NCBI GenBank assembly: GCA_016840465.1
Contig: JAEOSH010000010.1
Location: 1 to 32,000 of the forward strand
Source: Candidatus Baldrarchaeum yapensis
Lineage (GTDB): Archaea > Asgardarchaeota > Baldrarchaeia > Baldrarchaeales > Baldrarchaeaceae
Direction: 5' to 3'
Length of the DNA stretch: 32,000 bases
The notes under the pieces were generated by a model that worked only from the letters and a program-made list of their open reading frames with translations, had not been told where the DNA came from and made no database searches. A program made the position numbers and the translations under genes. Below, in pieces: positions 4,798 to 32,000 of the stretch. How positions within the stretch are numbered: position 1 is the first letter of the stretch; every line of letters begins with the position of its first letter.

Positions 4798-5268
4798 TTG
4801 GAAAAAAGTTTCGTAAAAGTTTCTGATCTATCACCGACCAGTAAGGGAGTTAACCTTAAGGTGAAAGTTGTAGGAAAAACCGAACCGCGAGAGGTAGTTT
4901 CTAGAAAGGATGGCTCGATACACAGGGTTGCGGAGGCTATAGTTGGGGACGAAACAGGAATCATCCTCATGACTCTTTGGGACACACGGATAGATGAAGT
5001 CGAAATAGGTGATGTTTTGGAGATTGTCAACGCATTTGTGACCCTTTACCGTGGGTCCATGCGCCTCAACGTCGGAAGATATGGGACAATAATAAAACTC
5101 GAAGGAGAAGATATCGAGGAGGTTAATGAAGAAAATAACCTGAGCGCAATGAGATTCCCCGAGCACAGAGGCTTTCCGACCAAGATTGGGAGAGGCGGTG
5201 GAAAGACTCCCGGAAGGGGAGTTAAAAAACCCCGGAGAAGCGTACCCGGAAGAAGAAGGAGACCTTGA
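4798..5268 (+). CDS. ssb: single-stranded DNA-binding protein, single OB fold (crenarchaeal SSB type), paralog 1
   Basis: VNLKVKVV, VGDETG...LW, GDVLEIVNAFV and LNVGRYG motifs; Gly/Pro/Arg-rich C-terminal tail; TTG start. Confidence 0.85.
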   Translation: MEKSFVKVSDLSPTSKGVNLKVKVVGKTEPREVVSRKDGSIHRVAEAIVGDETGIILMTLWDTRIDEVEIGDVLEIVNAFVTLYRGSMRLNVGRYGTIIKLEGEDIEEVNEENNLSAMRFPEHRGFPTKIGRGGGKTPGRGVKKPRRSVPGRRRRP

Positions 5269-10517: not shown

Positions 10518-10949
10518 TTATCGTGGCCTCCTTCTTTTCCTAGCTTCCCGTCTAGCAACATCCGCTCTTCTTCCGCGCGCCCTCGGCGGAAGCCTCTCGC
10601 TCATGTCATTGTCCTCGAAAACCTCGATATCCTCTCCGCCCACAACCTCTATGGAACCGTATCTCCCAACTGCCAGTTGCATTCTTCCTCTGAAAATTGC
10701 CACATATGCGTTTGTCAACTTTATGATATCTCCCACAGAAACCAAATCTATCGCGTCGTCCCACAGCGCCATCTTAATGATTCCCGTCTCATCTCCCACA
10801 ACGGCATCCGCAACCCTGTGCCTGCTCCCATCCCTTCTGCTAACGACAGTACGCGGCTCGTCTATGCTCAGAACCTTCACACGAAGGTTCACATGCCTGT
10901 GCTTGGGCGTCAGATCGGAAATTTTAACATCTATAGGCTCGCGGCTCAC
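10518..10949 (-). CDS. ssb: single-stranded DNA-binding protein, single OB fold, paralog 2
   Basis: Aligns by eye with 4798..5268 (VNLRVKVL, VVSRRDGSRHRVADAVVGDETG, LW, GRYG); Arg-rich tail; GTG start with GAGGTTGA SD. Confidence 0.85.
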   Translation of the reverse strand: MSREPIDVKISDLTPKHRHVNLRVKVLSIDEPRTVVSRRDGSRHRVADAVVGDETGIIKMALWDDAIDLVSVGDIIKLTNAYVAIFRGRMQLAVGRYGSIEVVGGEDIEVFEDNDMSERLPPRARGRRADVARREARKRRRPR

Positions 10950-21729: not shown

Positions 21730-23667
21730 ATGGGATTGCCTCTTTTTAGAAGGAAGAAAGAAAAGGAAATTGCCGAGCCTCCAACGATAGAAGAACTGCT
21801 TGAGGAAAAGAGAGAAACCTTTGCCAAAAGGCCGCGGGAAGCCGAGGGGGCGCTTGCGGTCAGGGTCATAGAAAGAGAGGAAATCGAAATTCGCGATGGA
21901 ACCCCGAATATCATAAGCGAGGAGAGAAGGATAGTCATCGAGAACCTCTCGAAATCCCCCATACTATCCGTGGAGGTCGCATTGAAGGGAGTTGACGCGG
22001 TGAAGCTTGAAAAGGATCGGATAATGATCCCAAGGCTAACCCCCCTCGGCGAGGAGCACAGTTCACACGAAGTCAGGTACAATATTAACATATCGAAGTA
22101 CAGGATCCCAGTAGAGATAAAGTGTGAGACATCTCTCGGGGAGGGGGTGAAAACTCCGGTCCTCCTGTATAATAACGATAACGCTTTGAAATTTAAGTTA
22201 TACATCAAAAACACGACCGACCAGATGCTCGAGGACGTAGTGGTGTTTAAGGAGCTACCATCGGCCGATTGTGAGATCGTAGGCATGAACAAAGAGATCG
22301 GGGATCTAAGGCATGAAGATGACAAGATAGCATGGCAGATTCCGTTAATTGAGGGCAACTCGGAAAGTTCCTGCGAGATAGATCTAAACGTTAGGCCCAG
22401 AACTACGGATCCCGTGGACCTCGGAAACATGATCGTAAATCTGATGTTGGAACGCGCACTCAGCGGTCTGTCGATAGATAGGGTTACCGGAACGGCAAGA
22501 ATATCCCATAGGGTAATTAAAAAGGAGAGAAGGGATGAAGCAGGGATATGGGACATAGAACTTCACGTGATGAACCCGAACGACTTTCCAGTGACGATAG
22601 AGGGAGAAATACTTCCGATGGGAGGAGAAATTTTCATCTCTGAGCACATGGGCGCGCACTACATAAAGGTCGAGGACAACAAGGTGAGGATTTCGGATAT
22701 AACCGTGGATCCCGGTGCCGACGAAACAATCGGTCCTATATCAATAAAATCCATAGCGTTTCCCCCCATGCAGACGAAACTCAGGGCCATAGTTCCAAAA
22801 ACCGTAACGTTCAGGTCAGAGGCAAAGTATATGATTCCCGGTGGGAGAATACCGGTACTGTGGGGAGAAGTTGTAAAGGATATAAGCGTCACGCCTGAGG
22901 AAGCCTACAAGGACTACGTGAGGCAGAACGAAATACCACCACTGGGCAAGTCGACTGTGAGCGTGACGACTAGGTTCACGAATAAAGGAAGTGCACCCGT
23001 CGGCTACCTGAAGATAATCGAGGACCTGCCCCCAGGATTCGATAATGTCAAGGGAGTTAAAGTTAAGGTGAGAGGAAAAGAGGTAAGTGAAGGGATAGAG
23101 TATAAAGTGGCCCCTGAGGGCGTGGGCGTTCAGGAGCGGAGACAACTCATCGTGGAGATAAAGGATTTCGACGGTTATGGAGGCCCCCTGAAGAATGGGG
23201 ACAGCCTCCTCTTGGAATATGATCTGGAGGCAGAAAATCCATTCCCCGGAACTTATGAATTCGGATGCTTCATGCTTGCATCCACAGATCCCGACAATGT
23301 GAAACTCGAAGTATCGTTGCCCAGCGAAAAGATCCCCAGAGTGGAGGTAATAATGCTCGCGCGGGAGATAGAAATCCAACAGGATGTTGTCCCGCTTGAG
23401 GCAATGGACGAGTACGAGGTTGTATTAACCGTGATAAATTCAAGCGAATTCCCAGTACGAAACTATAAGGTCAGAGACCTAGTACCGTCGAGCTTCGATG
23501 TCATAGAGGCCATGCCGAAGGCGGAGGTTAAACGCATCAAGGAAGGCACTATCTTACAATGGGTCATACCCGATATTCCACCCAAGGAGCAAGTTATACT
23601 AAAGTATAGGGTCAAAGGCAAGGGAGGGTACAAAATAGAGGATCTTATCGGAGTAAACGAAGTATAA
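21730..23667 (+). CDS. 645-aa cytoplasmic multi-beta-sandwich protein; N-terminal mu-homology (delta-COP/adaptin-mu)-like domain plus DUF11/Ig-like repeats
   Basis: No signal peptide or TM segment. Recurrent [IVF]xN-x4-[PL]-[IVL]...(E/D)xxP modules at aa ~69, 159, 280, 416 and 568. Aa ~43-254 show a mu-homology-like motif order. The ORF is certain; the fold call is by eye. Confidence 0.6.
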   Translation: MGLPLFRRKKEKEIAEPPTIEELLEEKRETFAKRPREAEGALAVRVIEREEIEIRDGTPNIISEERRIVIENLSKSPILSVEVALKGVDAVKLEKDRIMIPRLTPLGEEHSSHEVRYNINISKYRIPVEIKCETSLGEGVKTPVLLYNNDNALKFKLYIKNTTDQMLEDVVVFKELPSADCEIVGMNKEIGDLRHEDDKIAWQIPLIEGNSESSCEIDLNVRPRTTDPVDLGNMIVNLMLERALSGLSIDRVTGTARISHRVIKKERRDEAGIWDIELHVMNPNDFPVTIEGEILPMGGEIFISEHMGAHYIKVEDNKVRISDITVDPGADETIGPISIKSIAFPPMQTKLRAIVPKTVTFRSEAKYMIPGGRIPVLWGEVVKDISVTPEEAYKDYVRQNEIPPLGKSTVSVTTRFTNKGSAPVGYLKIIEDLPPGFDNVKGVKVKVRGKEVSEGIEYKVAPEGVGVQERRQLIVEIKDFDGYGGPLKNGDSLLLEYDLEAENPFPGTYEFGCFMLASTDPDNVKLEVSLPSEKIPRVEVIMLAREIEIQQDVVPLEAMDEYEVVLTVINSSEFPVRNYKVRDLVPSSFDVIEAMPKAEVKRIKEGTILQWVIPDIPPKEQVILKYRVKGKGGYKIEDLIGVNEV

Positions 23668-23691: not shown

Positions 23692-23956
23692 ATCGGACTT
23701 CTTAAGGTATATCGATAACCGATGCCACTTTCTCTTTTTGCCATTTTGCGAATATCAGCACGACAAGGGGAATAATGTCTACGTCTTTATTCTTCTGTAA
23801 TTGCCGAAGTATGAACATATTTTTCTTATTTTTGCGTAAAATTATGTTTTTTACAGGAGAGTGGTATCCCCTACAAACAGAATGTTTGGATACAAATATT
23901 ATAGAAAAATAGAAATACTGGGTACACATTTCTTAAGGATCACAAGGGTGAGATGT

Positions 23957-25459
23957 ATGGGACTTAAACCCCAAGAAATTTTGGAGAAGATCAGGAGCTG
24001 GTGGAGGCCCGATGTTATATCGCCGGAGAAGGTAAAGCAGTTCATAGAGATGATTCCCTTATTTAAAAAGGACAAGGATGATCCTGCATTCAAGTCGCAA
24101 AAGGAGATAAGGGAAATTCAGAACAAGAATCTCAGGAGACAGATAGAACTCTGCGCAAAGTATAGTCCCTATTACAAAGAACTCTTCAAGAAGCATAACA
24201 TAGACCCCTCCGATATTAAGACGATTGACGATCTCGAGAAAATACCCCTTACGTTCAAAAGCGATTATATGAAGGATCCTGAGGCTTTTAGGCTTCGCCT
24301 CGGGCTTGACAGACCTTTTTGGGAATTGATACTCTGGGACGTCACCTTCACCACAGGAACCGTCACCGGAAGACCCTCGATATTCTATAACACAACTCAT
24401 GACATATACGCAACTGCCCAATTCCTCATGCGATCCGGAAAGATCTGCTGGGCCACACCCTACGATGTTGTGTTTAACGCCTTCCCCTTTGGACCGATAC
24501 CCCACATCGGATATAACAGATGCGTAACGGCAGGGTTGGCCGAAGGTTGCGCGGTGGTTGCAGGACATACGGGTATCCGGCATCCGGAGTTCCCCATTGT
24601 TCACAGAAGTCTGGATGAGACAATAGAACTATGCGCCATCCACAGGTGCACGATAATCATGGGCATCGCAAGCTACCTCAGGAGGTTCGTAATGAGGGCT
24701 GAGGAACTTGGAGTGGATCTGTCATCGGTGAGAATAATACATGCTCTGGGAGAACCGTGCCCTAAAGGGATGCGTGAAGACCTGAGAAAGAGGCTTGAAA
24801 GCTTAGGCGCGGAAGACGTGTTCATACACAATGGATACGGATTCACCGAATGTCAGGGGAGTTTCTCCGAATGCACGGAACTCGGTGGCAATCACAACCC
24901 CGATCCGACTCTTTACTTCATTGAGATAGTCGATCCTGAGACTGGAGAGAGAAAGGAGGAGGGAGAAGAGGGAGCGATCGCGATAACGCACCTGAACAGA
25001 CGCGGAACTGTATTGCTTAGATACGTGCTCGGAGATATTGGCAAGATAACATACGAAACATGCCCATATTGTGGTAGAAATACAGAAAGACTCATGCCAA
25101 TTCATGGAAGCGTATATGCGACCAGAACGAAGGATCTAATAAAGGTGAAGGGGACTCTCATCAATCCGGGACTTTTAAATGACACGATCGAGAACATAAA
25201 GGGAATTGCGGAGTATCAGGTCGTGATAACGAAGGAGGATCCGAAAGATCCATATTCCATGGATAAGGTAATAATAAGAGTCGCACCGACGGGAGAAAGG
25301 GATGTAGAGGATTTAAAGGCGGAGATACTTGACAAAGTATTCAAGGCAATAGAAATGCGGCCTGAGATCGTGATAGAACCCTCGCCCTACGCGATATACG
25401 ACCCACGGGTATCGCTGAAAGCGACGAGAATAGTGGACAAGAGACCAAAGGTCGAGTGA
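23957..25459 (+). CDS. phenylacetate-CoA ligase (PaaK)-like AMP-forming acyl-CoA ligase
   Basis: SPYYKELF, DLEKIPLTFK, TTGTVTGRP P-loop, GEP, YGFTE, LLRYVLGD, IKVKGTLINP and KATRIVDKR; GGTGA SD before ATG 23957. Confidence 0.85.
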   Translation: MGLKPQEILEKIRSWWRPDVISPEKVKQFIEMIPLFKKDKDDPAFKSQKEIREIQNKNLRRQIELCAKYSPYYKELFKKHNIDPSDIKTIDDLEKIPLTFKSDYMKDPEAFRLRLGLDRPFWELILWDVTFTTGTVTGRPSIFYNTTHDIYATAQFLMRSGKICWATPYDVVFNAFPFGPIPHIGYNRCVTAGLAEGCAVVAGHTGIRHPEFPIVHRSLDETIELCAIHRCTIIMGIASYLRRFVMRAEELGVDLSSVRIIHALGEPCPKGMREDLRKRLESLGAEDVFIHNGYGFTECQGSFSECTELGGNHNPDPTLYFIEIVDPETGERKEEGEEGAIAITHLNRRGTVLLRYVLGDIGKITYETCPYCGRNTERLMPIHGSVYATRTKDLIKVKGTLINPGLLNDTIENIKGIAEYQVVITKEDPKDPYSMDKVIIRVAPTGERDVEDLKAEILDKVFKAIEMRPEIVIEPSPYAIYDPRVSLKATRIVDKRPKVE

Positions 25460-25658
25460 CGGGAGCCTTAGAGTACCGTTTTATTCCACAAATTTACGAT
25501 TTTTACGAATTTATCCGTCCACATCTATGATTTTTCTCGAAACAATCACTACATCGGAAAAGAGATTATGCGTCGAAGTTGGGACTAGATATTTTTATTA
25601 TGGCGACACACCCGGTAATTATGATTATGAGAACCCGGGCACACAGAGGTGGGTGGAA

Positions 25659-26429
25659 TTGAGTGAGGCAGAATTGAGAGCACGAATAAGGGAAGCCGCG
25701 GAACTCATAGTCGAGAGTAAGAAAAACGTCGCACTAACTGGAGCCGGAATCTCTGTGGAAAGCGGAATACCCGATTTTAGGGGACCAAATGGTCTTTGGA
25801 AGAGATATGGTGAGCATGTTGGACATATTTCGTTCTTCTTCACAAATCCAGGCGAATTTTGGAAGTTTGCACTGGAAGTAGCGAAGGTTATATTCGCGGC
25901 ACGCCCCAATCCGGCGCATTACGCGCTCGCCGAACTTGAGAAGATGGGGAAGCTTCATTGCATCATAACTCAGAATATTGATGGCTTACATCAAAAGGCA
26001 GGAAGTAAGAACGTAATAGAAATTCATGGAACCGCATGGAGATTGGTATGTCTCCAGTGTGGAACTAAATTCCCCGTAGAGGAAATTGCCAGCAAACTCA
26101 TGAGTAAAGGCTTCACAATTCCTCGATGTCTCAAATGCGAGGGGATTCTAAAACCTGACACGGTCTTCTTCGGTGAGCGCTTACCTGAGGAAGAGTTAAA
26201 GATAGCAATTTCTGAGTCTATGAGTTGCGATCTTTTCATGGTGGTGGGAAGTTCATTAGTCGTATACCCGGCAGCGAGCCTTCCGGGTATTGCGAAAAGT
26301 CATGGTGCAAAGACCATACTTGTTAACTTGGAGAGAACTGCAATGGATGAGATGTTTGACGTCGTGATTTATGGAAAAGCGGGAGAAATACTTCCTAAAA
26401 TAGTCGAAGAAGTAAAAAAGATGATGTGA
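25659..26429 (+). CDS. cobB: NAD-dependent protein deacylase, Sir2 family
   Basis: LTGAGISVESGIPDFRG, ITQNIDGLH, EIHG, CLQC...CLKC Zn site, KPDTVFFGE and GSSLVVYPA; GAGGTG SD before TTG 25659 (or GTG 25653). Confidence 0.92.
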   Translation: MSEAELRARIREAAELIVESKKNVALTGAGISVESGIPDFRGPNGLWKRYGEHVGHISFFFTNPGEFWKFALEVAKVIFAARPNPAHYALAELEKMGKLHCIITQNIDGLHQKAGSKNVIEIHGTAWRLVCLQCGTKFPVEEIASKLMSKGFTIPRCLKCEGILKPDTVFFGERLPEEELKIAISESMSCDLFMVVGSSLVVYPAASLPGIAKSHGAKTILVNLERTAMDEMFDVVIYGKAGEILPKIVEEVKKMM

Positions 26430-26450: not shown

Positions 26451-26954
26451 CTAAGGAGTGAGTTCTAGTACGAACTCGCAGGCATCTCCTCCAGCAGCAC
26501 GACATTTGACCTCATCACACTTTGCCCTCGACATACCCAAGTTTTTGGCTATTTTTTCACAAATTCTTTCCACAGCCCCGGCAAACATCGTGCACATTGG
26601 AATATCCGGAGATGGGGACTCTAGATCTAGGCATAACTTGCATTCTCTTAGTCTGCATCTCACCACAATTCTCTGATCGGATCTTTCAGATGAAATATCA
26701 TCAAATATCTGTCCAACTATGAAATTGAGGAAGTCATTTAGCATTCTCTCGAGATCAGTAACCGTGTGTGGTGCTACCTTTACATGCGACATGAATTCGT
26801 CATATAAAGCATCGGCAATTTTTCTTCCAAATTCCTTAAGTGTGCTCACTACCTCCTCCGCCGCAAGTCCGCTCCCCATGAGATAAGTGACGAACGCCTG
26901 AAGCGCGGCGGTATAACCATACACATTGATTTTATCGACTTTTCTCCAAGACAT
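26451..26954 (-). CDS. V4R-domain protein, Bet3/TRAPP-like
   Basis: ECKLC, PMC and EVKCRAAGGDACEF V4R Cys pattern; LKEFGRKIADALYDEF helix; GAGGTGG SD before ATG 26954. Confidence 0.75.
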   Translation of the reverse strand: MSWRKVDKINVYGYTAALQAFVTYLMGSGLAAEEVVSTLKEFGRKIADALYDEFMSHVKVAPHTVTDLERMLNDFLNFIVGQIFDDISSERSDQRIVVRCRLRECKLCLDLESPSPDIPMCTMFAGAVERICEKIAKNLGMSRAKCDEVKCRAAGGDACEFVLELTP

Positions 26955-26964
26955 GAGCGCCACC

Positions 26965-27489
26965 TCACTTCAATTTGATGTGTGCTCTGTATTCGCAAAC
27001 ATCATCCCCGAGCATTTTGCATTTTACCTCGTCACAGGTAATACTTTCGGCGTTCCAGTCCTCAAGCCTTTGTTCCTCTATCCATTCAAGGACTCCCGCA
27101 AAGAAGAGACAGAATGGAACCTTTATCGGAACCTCCATTCCTCTACAGAAAGGGCAGTCCCGTATCCTGTAAGTTATGTAAACGTCCTTACCCTCCTCCT
27201 TATACTCTATCTTGTCAAAGGGTTTCCCGGTGAAGAACTTGAACCCTAAGTTATAGGTCGGTACAAGGTCCCTGAGGGACTCAGCAGGCCTTTTTGTCGC
27301 TTGTAGATAACGAATATATATAAGTTCACCAGTGTACTTGTATATTTTCTTCAATTCCCTGTAGATGTCATTCGGGTCGGAATATTTCTGCCCTAGGTAT
27401 TCAATGATGCATCGTAAGAAGTGCCTAACGAAGTCCGCGTTTATCTTCTTCGCGACAAATCTCCAGGCAAGCACCCCTTTTATTCCCAA
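26965..27489 (-). CDS. V4R-domain protein, Bet3/TRAPP-like
   Basis: DCPFC, PFC and EVKCKMLGDDVCEY V4R Cys pattern; GAGGTGA SD before TTG 27489. Confidence 0.75.
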   Translation of the reverse strand: MGIKGVLAWRFVAKKINADFVRHFLRCIIEYLGQKYSDPNDIYRELKKIYKYTGELIYIRYLQATKRPAESLRDLVPTYNLGFKFFTGKPFDKIEYKEEGKDVYITYRIRDCPFCRGMEVPIKVPFCLFFAGVLEWIEEQRLEDWNAESITCDEVKCKMLGDDVCEYRAHIKLK

Positions 27490-27704: not shown

Positions 27705-28505
27705 TCACGCCAAGAAAAATTTTCGGAAAAATAACATAAGTATCAGTAAAAAATCTCCCCATACTACTGATAGTAAAAGTCCCATCTCCATGAGTGGAAT
27801 CATTGGAAGCCCCACCATCACCCAGATCACCCGGTAGCCATGATCAATTAAGGACCGTACCCTTTCTCTTCTCTCATTCTCTTCGGAGAACATGAGATTG
27901 TGAAGCCTCCTACATACCGAAATTTCCCCGTTCTTTATTTCAATCATTGGAATTTCCGCTTTTTCGAGGGCTTTCTTCGCATCCACGGGAGTTCCACCAA
28001 TTAACAGAAGCAAGCGCGCCGTCATACTCAAATTTGCAAGAGACCTCCTTACTTCATCATCACGCAATGTTAAGACGAGATTACGGACGAACAGAAGAAG
28101 TGCGACCAAGGACAGCAGTAGAATTGTGTTTGTGAGGACGGGTATTGCAAGCGTTAGTATTGGGATGATCCTAGGGAACTTCGCCAGCGAGATGGACGGC
28201 ACTCTCGGAAAGTAAAGGGCAATAGCTATAAAGGCCAAGGCATCCGCACTTCCTATTGTTTTCAACAATACCAAAATTACCATCAACAACCCTATCAGCG
28301 CGACTGCGAGCGCCTCCATCATTAGAAACTGGAAGATTGTCATTTCGGACGAGTACCTGAGATATGCAAGAATAACCCCAGGTGGGGTCATAAGGATCCA
28401 TGTCAGGTCGTGGACCTCCCTCTTCTTAATATCCTGAATCGATGCCCAAGTGAGAAATAGAAAGCATAGTCCCAACGAGATTGTCTCGAGAGCTTGTGGG
28501 TCCAT
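27705..28505 (-). CDS. archaeal prepilin/preflagellin peptidase (A24, FlaK/PibD-like)
   Basis: IQDIKKREVHD..W (first Asp), IGSADA (GxxD second Asp), WVMVGLPMIP C-terminal motif and multiple TM helices. Confidence 0.88.
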   Translation of the reverse strand: MDPQALETISLGLCFLFLTWASIQDIKKREVHDLTWILMTPPGVILAYLRYSSEMTIFQFLMMEALAVALIGLLMVILVLLKTIGSADALAFIAIALYFPRVPSISLAKFPRIIPILTLAIPVLTNTILLLSLVALLLFVRNLVLTLRDDEVRRSLANLSMTARLLLLIGGTPVDAKKALEKAEIPMIEIKNGEISVCRRLHNLMFSEENERRERVRSLIDHGYRVIWVMVGLPMIPLMEMGLLLSVVWGDFLLILMLFFRKFFLA

Positions 28506-28506
28506 A

Positions 28507-29211
28507 TCAGGCCCTTCTTGCGGTTGATATTCTTATTCCAACCGACGTTATCTCGTATGGTGCGAGTAGCGGAAGTCCTTCAAGCTGCCCGCGTAGTTTT
28601 GGTATATAAAGAATCGGCCTATCCTCGATCACTTGGAGTTCCAGAACACCGTCAGACATGTGATTTATTATTCCCGCGGTCTCCCGTGGTATTGCGTTTC
28701 TAAGGTATGAGAGAATGCAGAGAGACTCCGACTCGTAAAGTTTCGCCTTCAACGAGAATAACAATTTCATGAGGCCCTTATGCGGGGTTCCAAGTAAGAA
28801 GTAAGTCAGAGAATCTATCATTATACACGAACCCTCCTCGAGATGCGGGTAAACATAGAACCGGAATATATTTCGGAGGTCATATGCGAGCAGATTTCTG
28901 CCAATACCCTGCTTTTTCCCAGAAACTACCTCAAATAAGTCCTCAAATACCCACTTCTTGTCGTTAATGAGAGCATTAATGTCGAATCCTATGTCCTTTA
29001 ACTCTTCTATGATCGCCAATGGCGGAGCGTCCACCGCAAGATACACTATCTTTTTACCTCGTGTCCTGATGAAAGAATGCAATAACCTGTGGAGGAAGAC
29101 CCTATGAAGGGATCCAGGATCGAATGGAACCGATATTAGCGATGGTAGCGATATTCCACGTATTCTCGCGTCAAGCACCGAGTATCCGGTTGGCACAATC
29201 AGCCGAACCAC
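28507..29211 (-). CDS. RecA/KaiC (RAD55)-fold protein with a degenerate Walker A
   Basis: PTGYSVLD..I.G N-terminus, P-loop position reads PFDPGSLHR, MIDSLT (Walker B), SDGVLEL and PKLRG. Confidence 0.75.
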   Translation of the reverse strand: MVRLIVPTGYSVLDARIRGISLPSLISVPFDPGSLHRVFLHRLLHSFIRTRGKKIVYLAVDAPPLAIIEELKDIGFDINALINDKKWVFEDLFEVVSGKKQGIGRNLLAYDLRNIFRFYVYPHLEEGSCIMIDSLTYFLLGTPHKGLMKLLFSLKAKLYESESLCILSYLRNAIPRETAGIINHMSDGVLELQVIEDRPILYIPKLRGQLEGLPLLAPYEITSVGIRISTARRA

Positions 29212-29325
29212 CCCATTTTCCCTAATAGTGTTAACTTTTTTAATAGGTAATGGTGATGTGATCTAAAGGCGTATTGTACACTATGATGATCACCATTTAC
29301 CAAGAATTCCGAGGGTGTTAAGGGT

Positions 29326-30285
29326 TTGATGAGGGCAGTCGACGAGTTATTAAAAGCGAAGGTTCTTCTCCCCGCAATAAAAAGGCCTGCGGACTTCGAC
29401 ATCGTCGAATTCTTCTCCGAGTACGGTAGATATATTGCCCATCTTGCCATAGTGATAAAAAACGACCACGGAGAAGTGTTCTACGAAAGTTCGTGTGCGC
29501 CTTGTTCCATGGAGAACGCAAGAAAGTTGAAGACATGCCTCGATCTGGCATCTGCGCTTGATATAGAGTACACGTTCCTGGTTTATTGCTTCTCCGACAC
29601 CGTGCTCAGCAAGAGATTCGGCGTCGTGAGGGAGGGTGTCGAAACCCCTCCCTTCGACTTTCGAAAGTTCATATGCCCGAACAAGCCGGAGTACAGGCAG
29701 TATTTATCTGAGATAATCAGAGAAATCGAGGAATTGAGACCTTCCTCAATAGTCCTCATGGATGTCCGCTACCCGTGGAGGAACTTCTGCTTCTGTAAGA
29801 GATGTAGATCGGAGTTCGCAGAATACGCGGGCTCCCCCACCATACTCACATCATCCCACTACCTTCTTGAGGTTCTTCAGCAATACGAGCAATACTATGA
29901 GATGTGGCTGGAATGGAGGTCCAAAGTTGTTTCAGAAGCGCTCGCGGAAATATTATCGAAAAAGAAGGAAGGGATACCCGTATATGTTGAGATAATTCTC
30001 GATCCTGTATCGGAAATGTATAAGGGTCTTGTGGAGTTCTTCGCTCAGGACATAGAGAAAATGGCCCAATTTGTGGATGGGTTTATGGTTAACCTGTTCC
30101 CTTACAGTGGTGTGCCAAACGAAAGAGTGACAATCGAAATTCTCGAGCCTCTTTTAGCGACAAACAAGGATGTGCGCATCTTTTACGAGGGGAAAATCGA
30201 TGATAGGGCGATAAAGGTCCTGAGATACATTTCCAGCAAACTGGAGTCCGAAAGGGTATTTATAAATATCGGGGGACAGAAATAA
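29326..30285 (+). CDS. putative glycoside-hydrolase-like TIM-barrel protein
   Basis: FICPNKPEYR, VLMDVRYP, CFCKRCRSEF and WLEWR motifs resemble GH-like (DUF4015/GHL-type) barrels; no signal peptide. Confidence 0.55.
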   Translation: MMRAVDELLKAKVLLPAIKRPADFDIVEFFSEYGRYIAHLAIVIKNDHGEVFYESSCAPCSMENARKLKTCLDLASALDIEYTFLVYCFSDTVLSKRFGVVREGVETPPFDFRKFICPNKPEYRQYLSEIIREIEELRPSSIVLMDVRYPWRNFCFCKRCRSEFAEYAGSPTILTSSHYLLEVLQQYEQYYEMWLEWRSKVVSEALAEILSKKKEGIPVYVEIILDPVSEMYKGLVEFFAQDIEKMAQFVDGFMVNLFPYSGVPNERVTIEILEPLLATNKDVRIFYEGKIDDRAIKVLRYISSKLESERVFINIGGQK

Positions 30286-30305: not shown

Positions 30306-31091
30306 ATGAAAGAAGTATATAAATTCGGGATACCCGCGCTCGACGAGGCCCTTGGCGGTGGCTACGTCGATGGGAGTATAGTTTTGGTGGAGGACGAGAT
30401 GGGAATTCCTAGTGAGGTTCTTCTCGCTCACTTTATCGTTCAGGGGTTGCGGAGCGGTGACGACATTATCGTTCTCCTGAGTGAACACCCCATATCCTAC
30501 TACATCGCACTCATAAATCTCCTCGGATTTAACGCTGAAATGGCAATAAAAATGGGCAGGCTTGTCTTCATAGATGCGATGTTAAACCCCTTTGTCGCAG
30601 GAAAAAGGGTTCCTTACTACAGCAAATACGCGGTCAGGAACGTAGGAAGTATTAGTGAAGTCAGGCAAGCACTGCAGAGCGCAATCCAAGAACTGAAAGA
30701 ACCCCAAAAACTCAGAATAGTAATAGACTCTCTTTCGCAGTTTCTCCCACCGCTTGTACAAAACCCCCAGCAAGTCGTCATCTTTCTACAACAACAAATG
30801 GTAGAGCGTAAAGAGAGGGGCGGCGTATTCATGGCGCTCCTCCATAGAGACTGCCACGAGCCTCAGATCATAAAGTCGGTAGAATACATTGTGGACAGTG
30901 TGATATCGCTAGAGAGGGTTAAGACGGAAGCCGGTAAACCCGCGGAAATAATACTCAGGTTCCTGAAACACGATGACCTCGTGCTCTTCGAAAAACTACA
31001 AAATCAATCGTTCATCTATAAGTTCGAAGGCGGAAAACTGGCGGTTTATGAAATGGGCAAAATTCCGTTGAGAACAGATCTAGGGTGGTAG
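30306..31091 (+). CDS. RecA/KaiC-fold protein with a degenerate Walker A, Elp4/Elp6-like
   Basis: FGIPALDEALGGG...GSIVLVE, P-loop position reads EDEMGIPSE, GRLVFID, RIVIDSLS and VDSVISL. Confidence 0.75.
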   Translation: MKEVYKFGIPALDEALGGGYVDGSIVLVEDEMGIPSEVLLAHFIVQGLRSGDDIIVLLSEHPISYYIALINLLGFNAEMAIKMGRLVFIDAMLNPFVAGKRVPYYSKYAVRNVGSISEVRQALQSAIQELKEPQKLRIVIDSLSQFLPPLVQNPQQVVIFLQQQMVERKERGGVFMALLHRDCHEPQIIKSVEYIVDSVISLERVKTEAGKPAEIILRFLKHDDLVLFEKLQNQSFIYKFEGGKLAVYEMGKIPLRTDLGW

Positions 31092-31092
31092 C

Positions 31093-32000
31093 ATGGAAGC
31101 ACGGAGGGCAATTCTTAGAATGCTAGAAGAGGTAAGGAAAAAGAGGGACGAGATAAGGAATTCCTTTTCGGAAAGGCTCACCGGAATAATAAGGAAGACA
31201 ATATCGCCATCAAAGCCTACCTTTTCGTACCATGAGGTTACATCGCTCGCCGAGGAGATGAAGCAACACTTGATAGCAAACTTCAATGCCGTGTTCGACG
31301 AAATACTCAACAGTATAATGCCCGTGCTAATAGCAGTTGCCGGGGACGAAGTCAAAGTGCCCGAGGATCTGTTGCGACGGCAGAGAATGTACGTCGAGAT
31401 GGAAAGAACACTAAATGAGGTTATCAAACTAATATCTCAGGGGATGAATCGGGAGGTCTCCCTTGATAACCTGACGGATCAGATCAAGGAACTCGTGAAC
31501 AGCGTAAAAGTAATACCTCAGATGAAAGTGACGATTGACGAGCGCAATCAGAAGGTTTCCGAACTCATGGAAGAATTGAGGAAGAGAGACGAAGAATTGA
31601 GGAGGATGGAGCAAAAACTGGAGAAGTTAAAGGGAGACTACAACGCTCTTAACGAAGAAAGAGCCAGAATTTTGAGGATGCTTGAGGACAGGGGGAAGAA
31701 ACTGGAGGAGATGAGCCGAAAGGTAAAAGAACTCGAGGAGCGAAACAAAATGTTAGAGACGGAAAGGGAAGACTTGGGAAAGCGCATCAAGGAGATGGAG
31801 GAAAGGTTCGAGGAGGAGAGAAAGTCCTTAGATGAGCGCATGAGAAAATTACTCGAGGAAAGGATGAAGCTAGTTGAGGAAAACAACAGGTTGAAAAATG
31901 AACTCGTCGAGAAGAGCACGATAATCGACGACCTTAGTAGGAAAATCTCCGACCTCGAGGGAGAGGTAAAGAGATACGAGATGATGAAATTAACACTTGA
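31093..32000 (+). CDS. long coiled-coil protein, 3'-truncated by the window end (absent from the ORF track)
   Basis: Hand translation from ATG 31093 is open for 302 codons to the window edge: MEARRAILRMLEEV..., then E/K/R/L heptads from ~aa 150 (e.g. ELRRMEQKLEKLKGDYNALNEER). It starts 1 nt after the upstream stop. Confidence 0.85.
   Translation, partial: MEARRAILRMLEEVRKKRDEIRNSFSERLTGIIRKTISPSKPTFSYHEVTSLAEEMKQHLIANFNAVFDEILNSIMPVLIAVAGDEVKVPEDLLRRQRMYVEMERTLNEVIKLISQGMNREVSLDNLTDQIKELVNSVKVIPQMKVTIDERNQKVSELMEELRKRDEELRRMEQKLEKLKGDYNALNEERARILRMLEDRGKKLEEMSRKVKELEERNKMLETEREDLGKRIKEMEERFEEERKSLDERMRKLLEERMKLVEENNRLKNELVEKSTIIDDLSRKISDLEGEVKRYEMMKLTL

Follow-up and report, generated by a model that had tools for sequence, protein, structure and literature searches.

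The window analysed here is the whole 32,000-nucleotide stretch (positions 1 to 32,000 of contig JAEOSH010000010.1), and toward its right end a leftward and a rightward gene unit diverge. The genes and features considered were as follows.

27705-28505 (- strand): archaeal prepilin/preflagellin peptidase (A24), with PF06847 and PF01478 both over cut-off
28507-29211 (- strand): second P-loop-less KaiC-fold protein, 234 aa, of a different subfamily (PF06745)
29212-29325 (no strand): divergent intergenic region between the leftward and rightward units, from the sequence
29326-30285 (+ strand): 319-aa ORF with no assigned family (sub-threshold, weak glycoside hydrolase 42 match)
30306-31091 (+ strand): KaiC/RAD55-fold protein of 261 aa with a dead P-loop, from a single-copy family centred on Asgard archaea (ORF, Pfam, model, alignments, and trees)
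30384-30416 (+ strand): degenerate Walker A loop of that protein, residues 27-37, acidic, with an invariant Gly33 and no GKT (sequence and conservation)
30843-30896 (+ strand): its His-rich L2 loop and the next helix, H180-x-D-x-H184 ... E193-x-x-x-D197 (conservation; predicted subunit interface)
31093-32000, continuing to 33741 in the contig (+ strand): 5' part of a gene for an 882-aa coiled-coil protein, with 1 base between it and the family gene

The gene at 28507-29211 headed the leftward unit, and the prepilin peptidase gene began 1 base later; the peptidase gene lay directly downstream of the 28507-29211 orthologue in all three genomes (this one, G003, and G004). An earlier note on this DNA had described the 28507-29211 product as a second P-loop-dead paralogue, and the product did prove to be P-loop-less, with a KaiC fold (PF06745, 45.8 bits); the note had also placed the gene opposite 30306-31091 across one promoter, which did not hold because the 319-aa ORF stands between the two. 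No sigma-70-type site was found in 29212-29325 by a scan that does not cover archaeal promoters. The 319-aa ORF was found upstream of the family gene within this order only. The position of the coiled-coil gene after the family gene was kept in both related genomes, and the orthologues in G003 and G004 were 437 aa long, indicating that the coil of the 882-aa protein is much longer. Two tandem V4R-domain proteins (26451-26963 and 26965-27489, - strand; Pfam V4R scores at about the cut-off) were encoded downstream of the peptidase gene, adjoined by a Sir2-family deacylase and an AMP-binding ligase (25527-26429 and 23861-25459). In place of the V4R pair, both related genomes had a gene for an Arf-like small GTPase that faced the prepilin peptidase.

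All of the motifs that the earlier note had quoted for the ORF at 30306-31091 were present, and both of the losses that it reported were confirmed: VEDEMGIPSE stood in the place of Walker A, and LKHD occupied the position of the KaiC-like KxRG motif. The active KaiC-like signature (Walker A GxxGxGK[ST] with a KxR finger) was thus absent, and the Walker B strand (RIVIDS) and the strand-2 glutamate (E60) were retained. The AlphaFold model showed a RecA/KaiC fold (pLDDT 87), in agreement with the RecA-like fold proposed earlier, and homologues 55% identical to the protein, from Baldrarchaeia, carry the name RAD55-family ATPases. None of the 53 family members had GK[ST] in the P-loop; within this loop, E29 was conserved in 50 members and G33 in all 53. 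The K-x-R motif was retained in 15/53 members, which indicated that the loss of the finger was partly lineage-specific. In the family alignment, a conserved HxDxH loop was followed by EH..DG, with H180 found in 48, H184 in 51, and E193 in 52 of the 53 sequences; position 194 was His in 44/53 and Tyr in the 30306-31091 protein. A C-terminal aromatic tail serving as an Fe-S targeting signal was considered and rejected: the protein ends in LGW and Elp4 in LDF, LEF, or FEF, and the tail was unconserved in the family.

In a homologue search that gave 60 relatives, the orthologous tier was clearly set off, and when the family profile was compared with 1.8 billion representatives, 14 clusters scored above 220 bits and the next one 171. 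A motif scan of 185,579 GTDB genomes gave 74 matches, comprising 57 labelled as Asgard, 11 labelled as Methanocella, Bathyarchaeia, or other non-Asgard, and 6 without a label. The family profile found exactly one copy each in 79 of 261 Asgard genomes, distributed over the Heimdall, Hod, Wukong, Borr, Sif, Atabey, and Baldr groups. The gene was near-universal in several Asgard families (22/26, 18/18, and 10/10), such families including the ones that identical DNA linked to Heimdallarchaeum, Wukongarchaeum, Borrarchaeum, Sifarchaeum, and Atabeyarchaeia. One Hodarchaeum record also carried it, and the two Asgard families with the most sampled genomes gave no copy (0/63 and 0/58). Two non-Asgard phylum samples, both centred on a carrier of the family, contained it in 1/351 genomes (around Bathyarchaeia) and, as full family members, in 12/301 genomes (around Methanocella). 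Within the family, the Methanocella and Bathyarchaeia members (L065, L094, L113, and L134) grouped as a single supported pair (99/90), a pairing that suggests transfer or wide loss.

The 30306-31091 protein belongs to the KaiC-like superfamily: the Pfam KaiC model (PF06745) matched it with 50 bits, over the cut-off of 26.6. Of the Elongator models, PAXNEB/Elp4 (PF05625) gave 39.6 bits, over its cut-off, Elp5 (PF10483) gave 35 bits against a cut-off of 22.5, and ELP6 (PF09807) gave 17.8 bits, under its cut-off of 31.6. Across 61 Asgard genomes, this gene was the only one over the Elp5 cut-off, and the Elp5 model matched 6/53 family members; at E<0.01, the ELP6 model matched 12/53 members versus at most 4/53 controls. 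The ArlH model NF052589 reached 31.4 bits against a cut-off of 215. In an Atlas language-model search, an ELP6 cluster was the top match (0.91) once KaiC families were skipped. PDB sequence and fold searches with the protein or the family ranked PH0284, SSO2452, and KaiC first; there was no Elongator chain among the PDB sequence matches of the family profile, nor in the Foldseek top 50, which consisted of KaiC chains throughout. A wide structural search placed PH0284 at Z 27.3 and yeast Elp4 at Z 21.3, both with 20% identity; yeast Elp4 was aligned to the model over 229 residues with an rmsd of 3.2, and another Elp456 chain (4ejs_B) at Z 14.6. The PAXNEB match was rejected as proof of Elp4 kinship, as 42 of 53 control KaiC-like proteins matched too, the best E-value among these controls was better than that of the family, and the PAXNEB lists in other phyla were led by proteins outside the family.

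The archaeal single-domain KaiC-like ATPases (PF06745; PH0284, PDB ID: 2dr3, and SSO2452, PDB ID: 2w0m) have the same fold and length as the 30306-31091 protein, and no other structures matched it better (Z 27, rmsd 2.5-2.6). They share with it the N-terminal GIxxLDxxLGGG, the DS of Walker B, and, in the model, the canonical ring interface, whereas the family lacks the Walker A lysine/threonine (0/53) and has a His cluster of its own, and the arginine finger is gone in the 30306-31091 protein. FlaH/ArlH has the KaiC fold like the family but keeps the P-loop, and its group median against Elp4 was 14. No Walker A/P-loop consensus occurs in Elp4/5/6 (PMC5699542). An acidic loop at the Walker A position, a FLAEG-type helix, and an LRIxIxSL-type strand were common to Elp4 (yeast, PDB ID: 4a8j) and the family, and their profiles matched with a probability of 98% over 216 columns. 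However, the family lacks the N-terminal extension, the central insertion, and the C-terminal LDF/LEF tail of Elp4, and in Elp4 the HxDxH loop is without its first His. Moreover, Elp456 is a heterohexamer of three paralogous subunits, whereas the family is a single gene, with one copy in all 79 genomes. Elp456 is also characterised by tRNA binding under the control of ATP.

Because a direct ranking with KaiC first is expected if Elp4 diverged fast, the reciprocal comparison from eukaryotic Elp4 was the useful one. The Elp4 HMM was made from 26 sequences (metatranscriptome contigs and a homologue search; no fungi, no plants), and the comparison set consisted of 395 KaiC-like domains, including the best PAXNEB matches of two other phyla as competitors; the KaiC-like proteins of Thermococcales, Methanococcales, and DPANN lay outside the genome sampling. 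Against the Elp4 HMM, the family reached a median of 32.9 bits, compared with 14.3 for unselected FlaH, 12.1 for the remaining dead KaiC-like proteins, and 11.6 for active ones. With size-matched profiles, the family had a median of 97 against Elp4, the next groups 82 and 81, and the others 51-70, with some overlap. The 30306-31091 protein itself was a divergent member, with 25 bits and rank 105/395. A KaiC-like paralogue in the same genome with an altered P-loop (GDPGAGKF; G000:C12:66745-67512) was about level with it against Elp4 and branched elsewhere than the family in the tree. A FlaH subset with LIEGENDTGKS (Methanomicrobia-type; L211, L213, L223, and L228) matched Elp4 as well as the family did, with up to 47.7 bits, in contrast to FlaH at large.

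Trees were built under LG+C20 models, with Elp5 and Elp6 absent and with Elp4 rows that included neither fungi nor plants. Elp4 was the sister of the family and five near relatives in 4/5 trees. This grouping appeared in 55% of bootstraps with the full alignment, in 67% with the C-terminal half alone, in 84% with the reliable core blocks (branch 85/83), and in 71% with the core from which the P-loop columns were removed and in which FlaH was well sampled. In the two core trees, Elp4 and the family stood apart from active KaiC and FlaH in 97-100% of bootstraps, and Elp4 was nested inside the Asgard members in none of the trees. When the P-loop was removed and only three close FlaH rows were present, Elp4 joined FlaH (85%); this grouping was lost once eleven diverse FlaH rows were added, and FlaH was set aside as the sister of Elp4. 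AU tests kept the alternatives in which the sister of Elp4 was FlaH or the second gene of the locus (p 0.33 each) or active KaiC (p 0.29), and kinship between Elp4 and the family is therefore favoured only. The Elp4/Elp6-like character claimed in the earlier note thus stood insofar as the family was the best match and the commonest tree sister of Elp4 among the sampled archaeal KaiC-like groups, but KaiC models and structures scored higher and ELP6 remained under its cut-off. The same note had set its reading against an outcome in which the protein scores and branches with ordinary inactivated KaiC-like families; the protein did score higher with KaiC (50 versus 39.6, 35, and 17.8 bits), but it branched nearer to Elp4 than active KaiC, FlaH, and the other dead groups did, in trees for which the AU test rejected no alternative.

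In a homo-oligomer model, three copies were arranged head to tail with one copy using both faces, at a score of 0.67 versus 0.35 for the best of 3 controls; at least 83% of contacts agreed between runs, and the pLDDT was at least 84. The mark used for such models was reached by 20/30 solved pairs and by 1/23 single chains, the present job (three copies, own alignment) being unlike the cases used for that calibration, and resemblance to the solved KaiC/PH0284 rings may account for the pass. In the closest modelled contacts, residues 190-194 of a subunit met the dead P-loop, E60, S142, S144, and H180 of the subunit before it, and these residues were the most conserved positions of the family. 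In this arrangement, the predicted interface would hold a His/Glu cluster, perhaps a metal site, in place of the nucleotide.

Archaea have been described as having no part of Elongator, a complex that modifies tRNA in eukaryotes, except Elp3. The co-occurrence with Elp3 that the earlier note had raised did not emerge: Elp3 was present in 60/61 Asgard genomes whether or not they had the family, which occurred in about a third of them, and there was no linkage. In this genome Elp3 lay on another contig, and it was not found among the neighbours of about 60 family loci. The Elp1 propeller (PF04762) was not found in 5 Asgard genomes, in a search where no positive control gave a match. The neighbours of the family loci were lineage-specific and included a Cys-rich protein, a small Cys/His protein, a 4Fe-4S protein, CDP-archaeol synthase, a small GTPase, and coiled-coil proteins; in Wukong-type loci, a tRNA endonuclease lay two genes upstream of the family gene. 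The Cys-rich protein, of 100-137 aa and with no Pfam match, lay directly upstream of the family gene in 16 Heimdall-, Wukong-, and Sif-type loci (for example, L008:870-1238, L010:1082-1402, L012:1055-1465, and L013:1107-1406) and is the best candidate for a partner of the family protein. A 75-aa Cys/His protein, also with no Pfam match, followed the family gene at L111:3080-3304 and in 19 more Hod- and Borr-type loci.

From these results, we lean toward reading the family as a scaffold that forms homo-rings and has no catalytic activity, and as the most likely sister of Elp4, and perhaps of Elp5 and Elp6 with it, among living archaeal families. The protein would be a subunit descended from KaiC-like ancestors; its phosphate-binding loop is gone, a loss that makes a canonical ATPase or autokinase role very unlikely. 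The head-to-tail RecA ring interface appears to be kept, so that the protein most likely forms a homo-oligomer, probably a hexamer by extension of the modelled trimer to six-fold closure, and the conserved His/Glu cluster may fill the former nucleotide site between subunits. Such a ring would most likely act as a scaffold or adaptor for a partner and not as a required cofactor of Elp3. Elp4/5/6 would have arisen by duplication from a single ancestral gene, of which this family would be the closest archaeal relative now living. Kinship with Elp4 as an archaeal sister appears rather probable, with moderate support, Elp5 and Elp6 having been compared by their Pfam models alone. The 30306-31091 protein is not itself a member of Elp456, because it is encoded by a single gene, scores higher with KaiC, and has no link to Elp3. 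Of the archaeal Elongator-ring precursor proposed in the earlier note, what survives, with moderate support, is the likeliest sister family of Elp4; the heteromeric ring and the Elp3 link do not. If the sister relation is true, the archaeal gene behind the Elp456 ring is named and placed in Heimdall-, Hod-, and Wukong-type lineages, and the loss of the P-loop predates eukaryotes. One small single-gene protein would also provide a handle on whether ring formation and tRNA binding preceded the three-subunit ring. A full-text literature search of incomplete coverage found no report of an archaeal relative of Elp4/5/6, and Elongator subunits were not mentioned in a preprint on structure-based ESPs of Asgard archaea.

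A clearly less probable reading, but one with a real chance of being right, is that the family is an ordinary inactivated KaiC-like regulator of archaea, that its likeness to Elp4 reflects superfamily ancestry and parallel decay of the P-loop, and that the origin of Elp4 lies in a different branch or in one outside the sampling. A class of inactivated KaiC-like domains has been described for archaea (PMC5847659), KaiC came first by Pfam, NCBIfam, PDB sequence, and fold, and small GTPases, V4R proteins, and coiled coils occur among the neighbours; in addition, the AU test rejected nothing, and with unmatched profiles another dead group reached 109 against Elp4 versus 111 for the family. Parallel decay fits less well with the Elp4 grouping that persisted both without the P-loop columns, where FlaH was well sampled, and in the C-terminal half alone, or with the lower scores of the other P-loop-dead groups against Elp4. 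Beyond the scaffold that we prefer, the homo-ring might already work as a proto-Elp456 that binds tRNA and helps archaeal Elp3 to load or release tRNA in those Asgard lineages where the gene is retained. This appears improbable, and a direct archaeal sister of Elp4/5/6 whose homohexameric ring already bound tRNA or Elp3 is likewise unlikely. The affinity to Elp4, the strict single copy, the near-universal retention in some families, and the tRNA endonuclease near Wukong-type loci are in keeping with such a function, and the yeast Elp456 ring contacts Elp3 as well as Elp1 (PMC10018365). Nevertheless, most of the Asgard genomes with Elp3 do without the family, Elp3 lies away from its loci, the two largest sampled Asgard families lack the gene, and the family is acidic, with a median net charge of -6. 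If this reading were true, the accessory ring of Elongator would predate eukaryotes and would later have been tripled by duplication.

The heteromeric Elp456-like ring that the earlier note proposed for the two P-loop-dead genes of the locus is very improbable. Walker A is missing in both proteins, and of the other genomes in the order at least G004 kept the divergent arrangement, but orthologues of 28507-29211 were found solely within this order, whereas the family occurs singly across many Asgard groups; because most carriers of the family are without the second gene, a heteromeric ring is not the general state. The two proteins showed no pairwise similarity (BLASTP E 4.9) and fell on different tree branches, 28507-29211 grouping with another P-loop-dead subfamily (83/87), so that the paralogy claimed for them is distant only, through the KaiC fold. 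A profile of 28507-29211, made from only 3 sequences, did not match Elp4 (probability 0.2%). With its place beside the prepilin peptidase in 3/3 genomes, 28507-29211 would rather encode a separate KaiC-like protein linked to that pilus peptidase.

Elsewhere in the window, a 645-aa protein at 21730-23667 (+ strand) contained DUF11 repeats and had a weak, sub-cut-off match to an adaptor-complex mu subunit (E 0.0004). Two similar SSB-like proteins, each with a single OB fold and a basic tail, were encoded at 4798-5268 (+ strand) and 10518-10949 (- strand), their family being judged by eye.
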